Positions 1,411 to 6,928 of a stretch of DNA of 64,000 bases are shown here, piece by piece. The stretch spans positions 1,488,001-1,552,000 of the forward strand of contig ML978129.1 in the NCBI GenBank assembly GCA_010015805.1, read 5' to 3'. The notes beneath the pieces were generated by a model. The model searched no databases. It saw only the letters and a list, made by a program, of their open reading frames with translations, and was not told where the DNA came from. The DNA comes from Rhizodiscina lignyota (lineage: Eukaryota). Both the position numbers and the translations under genes were made by a program. Every line of letters begins with the position of its first letter. Positions within the stretch are counted from its first letter, which is position 1.

Positions 1411-3144
1411 ATGCACCATACCACAATGTCGTCGCAAATCAAGCTCCCTCACCGCGTCCATTGCGCGAAAGTCTACCCTTTGAAAGACAATGGCTTAACT
1501 ATCATAGCCTATGGCCACGACGATGGCATATGTGTAACATGGAGAGCATCGAACACTCAGCAGGCCGAATTCCACATACCGTTGAACGCGGAGGCGTTAC
1601 ACATAGCGTTTCCAGACCTCCTCTCCTCCAGAGGATTACCCCCTGTTCTCCAGAAGCAAATTGTACTAGCAGTTGCATGCTCCGACGCGACTGTGAGAGT
1701 CGTCACACTCCCTCTTAGTGCCCCATCAGAGGAAGAGCAGAAGTCTTTCGCGAGATCAGGTCACAGCGAATACGTGGAACAGGCAACAATTGCTGCTGGT
1801 CCAAAAGGGCATCGTACCGCACCAACCAAGGTCGCGCTCACATGGACATCTCGAGAACCGTACGACCAAGCGGAAGACGAAGAAGATGAAGCCGTGCCAC
1901 AGCATCGACAGACTGAGAGCTCTCTGGAATGGGATCTTCTCCTCGCCTCTGTATCTCCAGATGTCTCTGGTCTCCTATTGGTTACGAGGGTTCCATTGGC
2001 TTCAGGCCCTGATGAACCATTCTTACGAACAACCAGCCTCACTGCATTTCAGCGCTGTTACTTAGCATCCCCAGCGGCAGACTTGGCCTTCAATCCTGCC
2101 CATTACCCTTCAAGGAGACACGCTCAGCTCATCATTGCCGAAAGAGGCGGACTTGTGCGTATATATGATCCTCTGTCGTCCGCAACATCTCAAGCAGGAT
2201 CATATCAAGACGGTGCCGACATTGTGCGCTCAGCACGTCAGGGCGTTTGGCTCGGCGTTCTCTCAACACCGTTTCACTCTCCTTCCTCTACCATGTCTGA
2301 TGTGGCATCTCCATCTCTTTCGATACGAAAGAGAATACTCGCCGCTCAATGGGCTCAACATGGTAGAGCTGTCCTTGTCCTTATGGCAGATGGCGAGTAT
2401 GCTCTCTGGGCTTTCGACGGTGCATCTGGTGCTACAAGCTCCCCTGAATTCCGTGGCTTCATCGCATCGTCTAGCTCGATATCACCCAACTCTGCACCAT
2501 CCCCCGAAAAGATTACGCGAACCTCTCGCTCTATCTTGGCGCCGACGACACCTCGAACACGTCGCGAGCGTGAAGTGAGGCTTTTCAGCTCCTCGTCTTC
2601 GGCTACAGCAGCTACTGTAACCCCTCGAGGCGGCATTTCAGTCTCACAAAGACCCTCTACTGTCGACGGCATCGGCGGCAGCGCAGCAGACGAGTCCATC
2701 ATCATCTGGTATGCCGATGCTGCTTACTCATTACACCGGCCCGCGCTATCCCAAATAGAAGGCGTAGATACGTCCGGGGAGATGCTCACATCCATCGACC
2801 AATTCCCAGCCAACGAGTCTACAAGGGGAACGTCACACACTCAACCAGACCTACTCATAGCCGCAGAGCACCGGCTCCAGATCATCGCCAAGAACCCCGG
2901 CCACCTAAATGGCACACTCTCGAACGCTCTTGTGAGAGTCGAAGACGACGCCGACGACGACGACAACGACAACGACGACGAAGAGATGGCTGATGCCCTC
3001 GAGGACAGGACGGACAAGGAGTTGCTGTTGCGCGGAGAGTTAGACATTGCTGGTATGGACAGAATGCTGGATAGTATGAACGGATCCAGATTTGGCGTTG
3101 CGAGAGGGCGGAGAGTTGGATTTGCTGCAACACCCACTCTCTAA
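1411..3144 (+). CDS. NUP37: Nucleoporin Nup37-like WD40 protein
   Basis: Intronless 577-aa ORF. N-terminal LPHRVHCAKVYP...TIIAYGHDDG, internal FNPAHYPSRRHAQLIIAE and C-terminal LLLRGELDIAGMDRMLDSM...RRVGF resemble Pezizomycotina Nup37. Confidence 0.75.
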   Translation: MHHTTMSSQIKLPHRVHCAKVYPLKDNGLTIIAYGHDDGICVTWRASNTQQAEFHIPLNAEALHIAFPDLLSSRGLPPVLQKQIVLAVACSDATVRVVTLPLSAPSEEEQKSFARSGHSEYVEQATIAAGPKGHRTAPTKVALTWTSREPYDQAEDEEDEAVPQHRQTESSLEWDLLLASVSPDVSGLLLVTRVPLASGPDEPFLRTTSLTAFQRCYLASPAADLAFNPAHYPSRRHAQLIIAERGGLVRIYDPLSSATSQAGSYQDGADIVRSARQGVWLGVLSTPFHSPSSTMSDVASPSLSIRKRILAAQWAQHGRAVLVLMADGEYALWAFDGASGATSSPEFRGFIASSSSISPNSAPSPEKITRTSRSILAPTTPRTRREREVRLFSSSSSATAATVTPRGGISVSQRPSTVDGIGGSAADESIIIWYADAAYSLHRPALSQIEGVDTSGEMLTSIDQFPANESTRGTSHTQPDLLIAAEHRLQIIAKNPGHLNGTLSNALVRVEDDADDDDNDNDDEEMADALEDRTDKELLLRGELDIAGMDRMLDSMNGSRFGVARGRRVGFAATPTL

Positions 3145-3447
3145 GACCACGCGGATGCTTAAGTGCTGCTACATGAGAAGATAGGCAGAAGATAATACCA
3201 ATTGAACAGGTGCTTCACGCACGTGTAATATCTCGTTGAATAACTAAATACTTTGAACTCTACGGATCATCCACCGCGCGACTGGAAGAAACATAATATG
3301 ATGTAAAGCCTCCAATGCTCCTTATTGGCCCTCCCCGCTGCCCCTGCAAGCCTCGTGCGCTCCAGCCAATATGCGCACGGACCATTCCGCTCCACTTTTT
3401 GTTCTATGTAGAAAAGCTCACCCTTCCAACCATTCCTCATCAACCAA

Positions 3448-3708
3448 CATTCGCGTTGTCAGGAGGAGCCCGAAAGACAGACTATTTCATGGCCCAGTAT
3501 TCCTCGCGAGACATCAAGTTGCATGTTCCTTCATGGCCACTTCGGTGGTCAGCGGCCTCACCACCAAAGGACGAGCAGAGGCATTCCATTTCGCTTTGCT
3601 GCATCACCGGAGCCGCTGCCTCAAGAGGTATTGCGGGAGGATGGTGGCAGCGCTTTTCTTGCAGCTTTTTCCACTGCGAGGGACGGCTATTGCGAATGCA
3701 ACATACCA
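3448..3708 (+). ncRNA. Candidate structured non-coding RNA, family unassigned
   Basis: Four nested long-range helices enclose three hairpins, including a cUUCGg tetraloop. Several G-U pairs work only on the + strand. See findings. Confidence 0.6.
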
Positions 3709-4347
3709 TTTTGAATATGTTTTCGTTTTTAGCATGTTGAAGGTGGAAGAATATTGGCGACAGATTTCACACCAAACTATGATGATGTATTTTATGTAGC
3801 GACAGAATAATGGCACGTATAACCATTCCGAGGAATGTAGAACTAAGTTTTCCGAGATGATAATCTCGCTGACGTTGACTTCAAGAGTTGCTCGTCCTCG
3901 GTTGCTACAGATTTCGCCACCCTCTCGAGTAACAGCGTGTGAAATGCGAGAAAGTGCACAGTGATTTCAGGGAGTTTGGAATGTTGAATAGTTCCTTCTT
4001 GAGTTAATTCATAAGTTTATCGTGCCATGCCGTTTTCCAGCGCCAACGCTATGCAAGCTCGGCCCATTGGCCGCAGGTAGCTATGCCTGGACAGTCTATC
4101 CCGCTAGGCTTATACATCGAACTTTTATCACTGCCTTGGGCCTCGGTGCAAAGCCATAAGCTCAGCAGTTAGCACTACTAAATCAGCAACTTGCTCGAGC
4201 GCATGCGAAATGCGTGCGATCGCAAATGCAGCTCTCCACGTAGGGAGCCTTTCCCTTCTGGATGAGCGTGCGTCCAGCCTCCCCAACTCCAATACCGATC
4301 CATCTACCTCTACATTCAAAATCATTGCCTTCGTCTACATTCTTCTC

Positions 4348-6928
4348 TCAACCCACAAATCCTAGACCCTCCAACTCCTTCCTCACCCCCTCCTCGGTCG
4401 AAATCTTTTGTACCTGCGTATTCTCCAACTTCTCTCCTGCGGCCTGCCTCATCTTCAGTTCATCGATTGCCCTCATCTTCTTCAGCAGACTCCGAATCTT
4501 CTTTTCTTGCGGCGAGCCACCCCCTGGGCTCATGATCGCTGAAGTCGGGCTCATAATCGTCGCACCTGGACTCATGATTGTGATATCCGGCGGCGGAGTA
4601 TCCAACGTCTGCACCGTGGGCCGCGTGGGAGGAGCAGCCGCTGGCAGCGGATCGCGCCGTATATCCGCCATCGTATGCTTTGGCTCGCGGTCGCGGCGTT
4701 CGCGGGATCGAGAGGCCTGGCGACTATGGCCACCACCTTCCTTTCCATCTCTCCCACCACGACTCCTGCTGCGCTCGTAACGGCGATCACCACGGTCACC
4801 ACGTTCACCACGATCACCGCTCTCTTTCCATTCCTTATCCTCTTTTCCGCGACTCCTGCTGCGTTCCTGTCCATGGCCGCCACTACGCTCACCACTGCGC
4901 TCCCGGTTTCGGCCGGGACTCCGATTGCGCGGGGAACGTCGTCCGTCTGGGGCGTCCGCGTCGTTGACGCTTAAACCACGCGTGCGCTCTGCTGCCTCTT
5001 TAGCCTTCTTTGCCTCGCGCTTCTTCTTGTTCTTCAGTGCTGTTTTGCTCATTCCCTCTTCTCCTTCACCAGCCCCTACCAGACTCACGCCACCACCTGG
5101 TGCAGCACCTGGAGGCAAGTTCGCATCAACTATCTCAGCGCCTGGGACATGGCGGCGTGGTTTGCCAAATCCATTTACACCAGACGACCCACCTGATGTA
5201 CTAGAGATGCCATTGCTAACATATGCAGCACCACCTTCGTCCTCACGCTTGAAGTGGAGCGGCGTAGAAGTCCCACGGGCACCAGGAGGGCGGTAAGCAC
5301 CTGCGGGTTTCGATGGGGTCTTGACGCGTGCAAGATACTCCAGCGCAGATGCGTGAGGTGTCGGAACTGGATGAAGTGGGTCTTCCAATGGGTGCATATG
5401 AAGAGGTTGAGGGCGCCATGTCACATGGTAAAGCTCTTGCATGTCTTCGTTGTACATGATTCCGCCGCCAACGTGCCACACCCTAATGCCATTGTCCACT
5501 CGAAGTCGCGGCGACGTCGTGGCCGTGAGGATGTGCTTGCCATCAGGACTCCACTCGCAAACAGACGCGTTGCTAGCCTCAATGGTGCAGATCTTGTTGT
5601 AATCTTTGTCCAAGTCGTAGATATCCATCTGGCCGTTCAAGTTTCCAAAACCGGCGACGAGGACAAAACGGCCGTGTGGAGAAAAGAGGATCGTATTTCG
5701 CGGGGCGAGAGGGAAGGTGTGCGTTGCGACTGCACGTTGGTTGAAAATGACCGTCTTGGCTGGCATGTAACCATACACCACGCCAAACTCTTTACTGTTC
5801 GGCGACCAAGACACGTCATGGATAGGGCCCTCCTTGTCTGTATGCAATTAGCTTTGAGTGCTCAGTGTGAGGTGTATGTAAAGGTATACCTAAGGTGATC
5901 CTCGAGTCAAATCCGCCATTTGCGCTCAGGATGTACATGTTCGTCTCCCCATAGTAGTTCTTGTTCGTCTTGTCGACCTCTGTCTGGGCGAGTACAATCA
6001 GGCTTGTGCCAAGCTCATTCCACTTCAATTGAACCTTGTCGCCTTTGAAAAAGGTCTTTTGCGACACGGGCGAAGCGAACTGCGGGACATTGAAGACCTT
6101 GACGGCGGCTGGTTGGCCCTAGTTAAAATTGTCAGTGCGCGGAAGTCGTCATTGTAAAGTGCGGTAAAAACCTTTCGTTCAGGGACAAAGATTGCAACTG
6201 AATTGGTCTTGCCTGGGGAAACCGCAAAATCGGTGACGCCCTCGACAATCAGCTTGTTCCACACAGTCTTGAGATCTCCGCTCTCATAGAATTGAACCTC
6301 GTTGGTGACGGTCCTAGCGCAATACCGCTCGTCGGAGGTATATTGGAGATTCCAGCCAGTCTGGTTGCGCTGCACAAACGAGCCAACCACGCTGCGTTCG
6401 CCTTTCTCACCAGCACCCTCATCGATGGTACGCCAGACTTTCAGATTCTTTGTCGCGTTACCATCCTCGTCCTTCGAGGATCTCTGCCAAGTTATGAGGT
6501 AGGTGCCGAGGGGAGAGAAACCAAGCTCATAGACGTTCTCTGCAGGGAGGGTCGTGACGAGATGGCCAACGGAAGCGTCGATTACCGAAACCCTAAGAGT
6601 CTATTATTAGAGCGGGTAACCAGCAAATGGTGGATGTAGCGCTCACTGTTCGGGCGATGCCCAGGCAAAGAACCTTCCATCAGGCGAGTAACAGCAGCAG
6701 CGCATGTTACCCTCTGGGCTACATGACGCGTTAGTATTGAACGTAAATCAAGCCAGGCCGAATGTTGCGCAACTCACCGAGCAAAGCCTGGGAGAGACTC
6801 GTAGAGAGGAGCCGCATTGAGGATGCCAATGCCCTTCAGGGTCCGAACTGTGTACGTGAGTTAGCGCATCGTAGTTCACATTCTGGAGACAGGCATCACA
6901 TACAAGCCAACTGCGTCGGTTCTGCCAT
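4348..6928 (-). CDS. eIF2A: Eukaryotic translation initiation factor 2A (multi-exon)
   Basis: Spliced start MAEPTQLAFRTLKG; motifs KTNKNYYGET, GPIHDVSWSP, LVAGFGNLNG and TATTSPRLRVDNG; C-terminal KKIRSLLKKMRAIDELK; about 5 introns. Confidence 0.95.

Follow-up and report, generated by a model that had tools for sequence, protein, structure and literature searches.

The NUP37-eIF2A locus and its relatives

The window, by which we mean the whole 64,000-nt stretch of Rhizodiscina lignyota DNA that was analysed, carries APC1 at ORF 2-1144 on the minus strand (identified by Pfam search) and eIF2A at ORF 4348-5847, also on the minus strand (Pfam PF08662, 3.3e-58). Between them, ORF 1411-3144 (+) encodes a NUP37-like protein of 577 aa. 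This protein has no match in a Pfam or PDB sequence search; it was recognised by an ESM Atlas feature score of 0.97 together with a structure match, to NUP37_N clusters of Ascomycota. The convergent NUP37 and eIF2A genes are separated by a gap of 1.2 kb, where a preliminary description had placed an unannotated structured RNA at 3448-3772. The letters quoted there are those of the window, and the gene context that it gave, NUP37 on one side and eIF2A on the other, is correct.

Relatives were sought among 80 fungal metagenome loci encoding eIF2A. NUP37 is the convergent neighbour of eIF2A in loci L011, L012 and L016, with APC1 beyond NUP37 in L012 and L016. L011 and L012 form a near-identical pair, as do L016 and L017, leaving three independent lineages once the window is included. 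These lineages are distant, with best eIF2A segments 59-65% identical and NUP37 30-35% identical. The gene order APC1 (-), NUP37 (+), RNA (+), eIF2A (-) is kept in L012 and L016, two distant lineages. The arrangement differs in L024, L036, L040 and L041, where a NUP37-like N-terminus is on the upstream side of eIF2A; the locus has thus been rearranged in other fungi.

A blastn search of the gap against the 80 loci gave no match in the syntenic loci. Reading the gaps side by side brought out a conserved block on the plus strand, the strand of the preliminary description; outside that block, blastn cannot align the gap. Profiles made from the relatives alone were searched against both strands of the window's 64 kb (128 kb in all). 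A profile made from L012 and L016 only had its top match at 3449-3517 (+), with an E-value of 0.0011 and a next best of 0.37. A second profile, made from the 3′ domain of L012 and L016, had its top match at 3589-3703 (+), with an E-value of 0.0018 and a next best of 1.2. Two adjacent segments are thus matched independently, in the same order and strand and at the syntenic place, which establishes homology over about 3449-3703. A plus-strand, RNA-like element at about 3451-3706 is common to the window and two other fungal lineages, L011/L012 and L016/L017, syntenic and on the same strand in each. In all three lineages it lies about 235-310 nt 3′ of the NUP37 stop codon, on the NUP37 strand.

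With model R1, the element is found in only 4 of the 80 loci (in 51 of the 80, the sequence extends 800 nt or more downstream of eIF2A), and neither the remaining 76 loci nor the rest of the window yielded another copy. In the loci other than those with the element, NUP37 is not the neighbour of eIF2A. A regular-expression near-match in L024 gave no score with model R1, and a specific pattern for the 5′ hairpin described below had no matches among genome contigs and none among viral contigs.

Several motifs lie upstream of the element. Two CCAAT-type motifs (3336-3372) and an A/T-rich, TATA-like stretch (3383-3397) are found 55-115 nt before the 5′ hairpin, and TATA-like stretches precede the hairpin in the relatives by about 65 nt (L012) and 25 nt (L016). 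Judged by their letters, these motifs are possible promoters of the RNA's own.

The preliminary description had found no hallmark motifs of U1-U6, SRP, RNase P/MRP, U3 or the telomerase template. Rfam 15 has no match at gathering score in the whole 64-kb window. At E-values up to 10, the region 3250-3950 yielded five weak matches (best E 0.14), all far below gathering score, the best score being 16.9 bits against the 75 needed. At E-values up to 1, L012, L016 and L011 yielded none. RNase P/MRP, SRP RNA, the snRNAs, U3 and telomerase RNA were considered and rejected, having no Rfam match and no hallmark motifs visible by eye; no telomere-template permutation was seen by eye in 3440-3720. The snR30/U17 RNA has two conserved motifs in the internal loop of its 3′ hairpin, at a fixed distance from the ACA. 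By eye, there are partial likenesses to these in single lineages, on the wrong strand or in the wrong hairpin, and none is conserved in all three. A box C/D RNA on the minus strand was likewise rejected, as the would-be boxes, compared by eye, are not conserved in the three lineages. The overlapping ORFs, earlier dismissed as spurious, do appear to be so, with low-complexity translations and no Pfam family for the two long ones (141 and 142 aa). The conserved block also contains 1-nt indels in alignment A2, which argues against coding.

The 5′ hairpin, its internal loop and the H box

The 5′ part of the element is predicted by RNAfold and RNAalifold to form a hairpin, HP1, at 3451-3509 (+). 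In the RNAfold structure, its lower stem, P1, pairs 3451-3455 with 3505-3509, its distal stem pairs 3466-3469 with 3492-3495, and its upper stem pairs 3472-3474 with 3486-3488 beneath a variable apex. RNAfold gives an identical HP1 in the window, L012/L011 and L016/L017, and RNAalifold predicts it unguided on alignment A2. Over the 13 pairs, 97.4% of cells are paired and 3 pairs show compensatory double changes, whereas sliding the 3′ partners by 1-3 columns leaves 26-49% of cells paired. The observed level of covariation was reached in 15 of 500 column shuffles, a weak test because there are only three distinct rows. The folding energy of HP1 alone is no better than that of its shuffles (z -0.78).

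An internal loop, positioned as a guide loop would be, is framed by P1 and the distal stem. Its 5′ strand, UUGUCAGGAG at 3456-3465 (+), has an A-G-G and a last G that are invariant in the three lineages, and its 3′ strand, AGUAUUCCU at 3496-3504 (+), holds an invariant AGUAUU, both in alignment A2. Only 1-2 nt after P1 comes the H box (consensus ANANNA), which reads ACAUCA at 3511-3516 (+) and occupies the same alignment columns as AUAUCA in L012 and ACAUUA in L016. The spacing from the distal stem to the ANANNA is 15 nt in the window and 16 and 15 nt in the relatives, in agreement in all three lineages with the H/ACA guide-loop spacing rule of 13-16 nt as quoted by Jady et al. (PMC8763049). 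The preliminary description had instead paired an ACA at 3701 with an ANANNA-type motif at 3703-3708. The ACA is conserved, but the motif beside it is not the H box; the conserved one is at 3511-3516.

The 3′ half and the competing nested helices

From the H box to the ACAU, RNAfold gives the same layout in all three lineages: a middle hairpin domain, followed by a large domain closed one nt before the ACA. In the window, the middle hairpin domain (HP2) covers 3519-3578 (+) and includes a cUUCGg hairpin at 3534-3551; it is variable in the relatives. The 3′ domain covers 3581-3699 (+), closed by GCAUUC (3581-3586) with GAAUGC (3694-3699), and includes most of the profile match at 3589-3703. The ACA box is at 3701-3703 (+), within an ACAU that is invariant in alignment A3, and the mature 3′ end, which in box H/ACA RNAs lies three nt past the ACA, is predicted near 3706. 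The closing stem and box read GCAUUC/GAAUGC-A-ACA in the window, GCAAC/GUUGC-U-ACA in L012 and UCAACGU/ACGUUGA-U-ACA in L016. In L012/L011 this stem has three alternative 5′ partners that shift with small changes of input, so it is not settled in that lineage. The 3′ part in the window is not a simple hairpin; the middle hairpin is extra, and the domain after it is branched and about 120 nt long, a model of the domain that comes from single-sequence folds compared over three lineages only. No clear second guide loop is present in it.

Two hairpins lie within the 3′ domain. Hairpin a (3598-3651, +), from the MAFFT alignment A3 and RNAfold, contains an asymmetric internal loop with GAG (3610-3612) opposite GAGGA (3637-3641). 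In all three lineages the loop has G-A on both strands, and the flanking stems differ in sequence while staying paired. The kink-turn consensus consists of a three-nt bulge and then tandem sheared G-A pairs, set between two stems. L016 fits this pattern, the window has one nt extra, and the stem in L012 is irregular. As modelled, the loop of hairpin a looks K-turn-like, with tandem G-A/G-A pairing possible. Hairpin b (3652-3687, +; RNAfold) has a loop at 3665-3673 (CUUUUUCCA) similar to that of its counterpart in L016. Both hairpins contain G-U pairs that favour the plus strand, and G-U pairs were also the grounds on which that strand had been chosen earlier.

Other features of the 3′ half and its surroundings were seen along the way. 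The stretches 3636-3656 (GGGAGGAUGGUGGCAGCGC) and 3677-3697 (GCGAGGGACGGCUAUUGCG) contain similar motifs, and both are like a conserved block that occurs once in the relatives. In the MAFFT and nhmmer alignments, that block falls on the first motif, at 3636-3656. An Sm-site-like AUUUUG (window 3708-3715) is found 3′ of the ACA in the window and L016/L017, not in L012/L011. Farther on, 3772-3798 resembles L016 at a similar distance past the ACA, and the plus strand has a box C-like AUGAUGA at 3779-3785 and a CUGA at 3870-3873. In Rfam, 3750-3875 has weak archaeal C/D matches only (sR9, E 2.7; sR14, E 5.6). Going by its sequence, this region may hold another small RNA or a signal for processing or termination, or the likeness may be due to chance.

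The preliminary description had built the RNA on another plan, in which four nested helices closed a junction with three hairpins. All 30 pairs of the four helices are standard, 5 of them G-U, and the hairpins are found at the coordinates quoted for them. The unconstrained minimum-energy fold of 3446-3706 (-86.5 kcal/mol) contains three of the four helices, and enforcing all four on the same stretch gives -84.4 kcal/mol, at a cost of only 2 kcal/mol. The H/ACA-type fold of the window reaches -81.2 kcal/mol, a loss of 5 kcal/mol relative to the minimum. Set against shuffles, the folding energy is no better than chance either for 3448-3772, where 6 of 100 shuffles fold as well (z = -1.48), or for 3448-3698, where 60 of 200 do (z = -0.46); the minus-strand fold has z = -0.81.

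The nested helices compete with local stems that are conserved, namely the lower stem P1 of HP1, hairpin b and the stem that precedes the ACA. The analogue of helix 1 is worth -10.1 kcal/mol in the window, whereas the values for L012/L011 and L016/L017 are -2.7 and -4.0 kcal/mol. P1, a local stem, is worth -7.7 to -15.8 kcal/mol across all lineages. The 5′ hairpin stays local in the whole-RNA folds of the relatives, where the first 75 nt contain no far-pairing nucleotides in L012, none in L011 and 5 in L016, those 5 lying after the H box. As an architecture, the four nested closing helices are not conserved, and the outermost is specific to the window. From these models, they are a thermodynamic alternative in the window rather than a conserved structure. 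The hairpins at 3534-3551 and 3598-3651 are retained in the conserved model.

Class, rival explanations and a candidate target

The plus-strand element at 3451-3706, about 255 nt in length, is probably an unannotated box H/ACA guide RNA, either a snoRNA or scaRNA-like. The class is indicated by the guide-loop hairpin, the H box at the right spacing and the terminal stem with its ACA. Lower and distal stems framing an invariant loop, an ANANNA, and a 3′ domain that ends in a stem and ACA are all conserved. Most likely it is an H/ACA-class guide RNA that is ordinary in kind and atypical in its middle hairpin and branched 3′ domain. A stand-alone, structured, plus-strand ncRNA outside Rfam, as first proposed, is still the best reading, from homology and predicted structure. 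The suggestion of an "atypical large H/ACA-like RNA" pointed in the right direction, as the guide loop, the H box spacing and the ACA fit it; the alternative suggestion of a "new fungal class" is superfluous because the features fit the known box H/ACA class.

An RNA of this kind would assemble with the Cbf5, Nop10, Gar1 and Nhp2 proteins. Its 5′ loop would pair with a target RNA on either side of a uridine, which would thereby be presented for conversion to pseudouridine. Assembly and stability of the particle would be the main role of the 3′ half, large and branched as it is, with the G-A/G-A loop. The best candidate for a target would be the 5′ end of U1 snRNA (U5/U6).

The main rival to the H/ACA reading is a structured NUP37 3′ UTR element. 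Whether part of the UTR itself or of a transcript farther downstream, the conserved sequence would then act in cis on the NUP37 mRNA, for example on stability, localisation or termination, and would not be a free guide RNA. The element does sit on the NUP37 strand at the distance past the stop codon given above in all three lineages, it turned up at no locus where eIF2A lacks NUP37 as its convergent neighbour, and several conserved 3′ UTR structures have been reported in Pezizomycotina by Gao et al. 2021 (PMC8216456). However, the geometry of loop, H box and ACA would have no reason to exist in a UTR element, the invariant single-stranded letters of the loop resemble antisense guides, and the loop is invariant even though NUP37 itself is so diverged between lineages. 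We consider a UTR element unlikely. Membership of another ncRNA class, with a K-turn-like loop bound by an L7Ae-family protein or with an Sm-class identity, and with H/ACA features that are coincidental, is quite unlikely. It would account for the G-A/G-A loop and flanking stems conserved in all three lineages, a loop that to our knowledge is not usual in eukaryotic H/ACA RNAs, as well as for the branched 3′ half and the AUUUUG that follows the ACA in the window and L016. Yet L012/L011 have no AUUUUG, the H box spacing is kept in all three lineages, and at E-values up to 10 there is no Rfam match to snRNAs, RNase P/MRP, SRP, U3 or telomerase RNA.

It is very unlikely that there is no RNA gene here at all. 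The similarity would then reflect conserved DNA (paired CGCG-containing protein-binding sites) or chance, and the fold first proposed would be a product of chance. In favour of this, folding energies are no better than those of shuffles, each profile E-value is only about 1e-3, and the two invariant CGCG blocks, being palindromes, would read as DNA sites too. Such an explanation leaves out that the two segments were matched independently in the same order and strand at a syntenic spot, that compensatory changes preserve stems, and that the stems of hairpin a differ in sequence and stay paired, with G-U pairs among them.

Under the H/ACA reading, the conserved loop was compared with a single candidate target, the first ten nucleotides of U1, whose 5′ end sequence is printed in a 2021 review (PMC7960923). 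Eight Watson-Crick pairs can form in H/ACA geometry in all three lineages. Presentation of U6 would use 5 upstream and 3 downstream pairs (U1 1-5 and 8-10), with two guide letters unpaired at the top of the loop; in L012 and L016, presentation of U5 would use 4+4 pairs (U1 1-4 and 7-10). Alternative pairing of this kind, here at U5 or U6, has been shown for dual guide loops of human H/ACA RNAs. Random 10-mers matched in all three lineages in 1 of 200,000 cases with Watson-Crick pairs only and in 98 of 200,000 with G-U allowed. The invariant second U of AGUAUU is unexplained by U1 pairing. U1 is a lead only, because a thousand or more rRNA uridines could give such a match by chance. From this pairing, we regard it as a doubtful though possible reading that the element supplies the guide RNA so far missing in fungi for pseudouridylation at the 5′ end of U1, and one that also has a conserved K-turn-like loop.

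In humans, Psi5 and Psi6 of U1 are guided by ACA47 and U109, and the 2021 review states that in yeast it is still unclear whether the same two positions are RNA-guided or made by a stand-alone enzyme (PMC7960923). Among the papers listed by searches on fungal U1 guides and on a fungal snoRNA catalogue, none names a fungal U1 guide, and "U1 snRNA" does not occur in the main text of "The fungal snoRNAome" (PMC5824354).

Several known RNAs bear comparison with the element. The animal U1 guides, namely human ACA47 (SCARNA16, for U1 Psi5) and U109 (SCARNA18, for U1 Psi6) and Drosophila pugU1-6, are described as box H/ACA RNAs with a guide loop that base-pairs to the very 5′ end of U1 (PMC7960923, PMC3884663). 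The loop of the element could form 5+3 or 4+4 Watson-Crick pairs around U6 or U5 of this putative target. Yeast snR81 is listed as the H/ACA guide for U2 Psi42 (PMC7960923), and would share with the element as proposed that it is a fungal H/ACA RNA acting on a spliceosomal snRNA, with a different target. Among the yeast H/ACA families, snR81 included, there was no Rfam match to the element. Archaeal H/ACA sRNAs carry a K-turn in their upper stem, and so combine, like the element, an H/ACA-type guide with a G-A/G-A kink-turn-like loop. The element differs from these sRNAs in the place of the predicted loop, which belongs to a side hairpin within the 3′ domain rather than to the part of the 5′ hairpin above the guide loop.

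The closest published descriptions are perhaps those of Gao, Jones and Rivas 2021 (PMC8216456), who describe "Intergenic structures 1, 3 and 4 (H box)" and "H/ACA snoRNA 3". As presented there, these are conserved intergenic RNAs of Pezizomycotina/Ascomycota that, like the element, have one well-conserved hairpin with a guide-like interior loop and then an H box; they too were absent from Rfam when described, and the remainder of each is weakly conserved. In structures 1, 3 and 4, according to those descriptions, no second hairpin or ACA was seen, whereas the element here has a conserved 3′ domain and an ACA. Judged by the published descriptions, the element may be one of these structures.

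If the element is a simple H/ACA snoRNA, the gain is one of annotation: one more guide missed by Rfam-based pipelines in filamentous fungi, to which a covariance model ready for use and a conserved gene order (APC1-NUP37-RNA-eIF2A) would be added. A conserved G-A/G-A loop in a eukaryotic H/ACA-type RNA, if it forms as modelled, would also make binding by an L7Ae-family protein (Nhp2 or Snu13) worth a look. Finally, if the target is U1, then U1 Psi5 and Psi6 would be RNA-guided in filamentous fungi, and the question of the yeast mechanism as put in the 2021 review (PMC7960923) would become directly testable.
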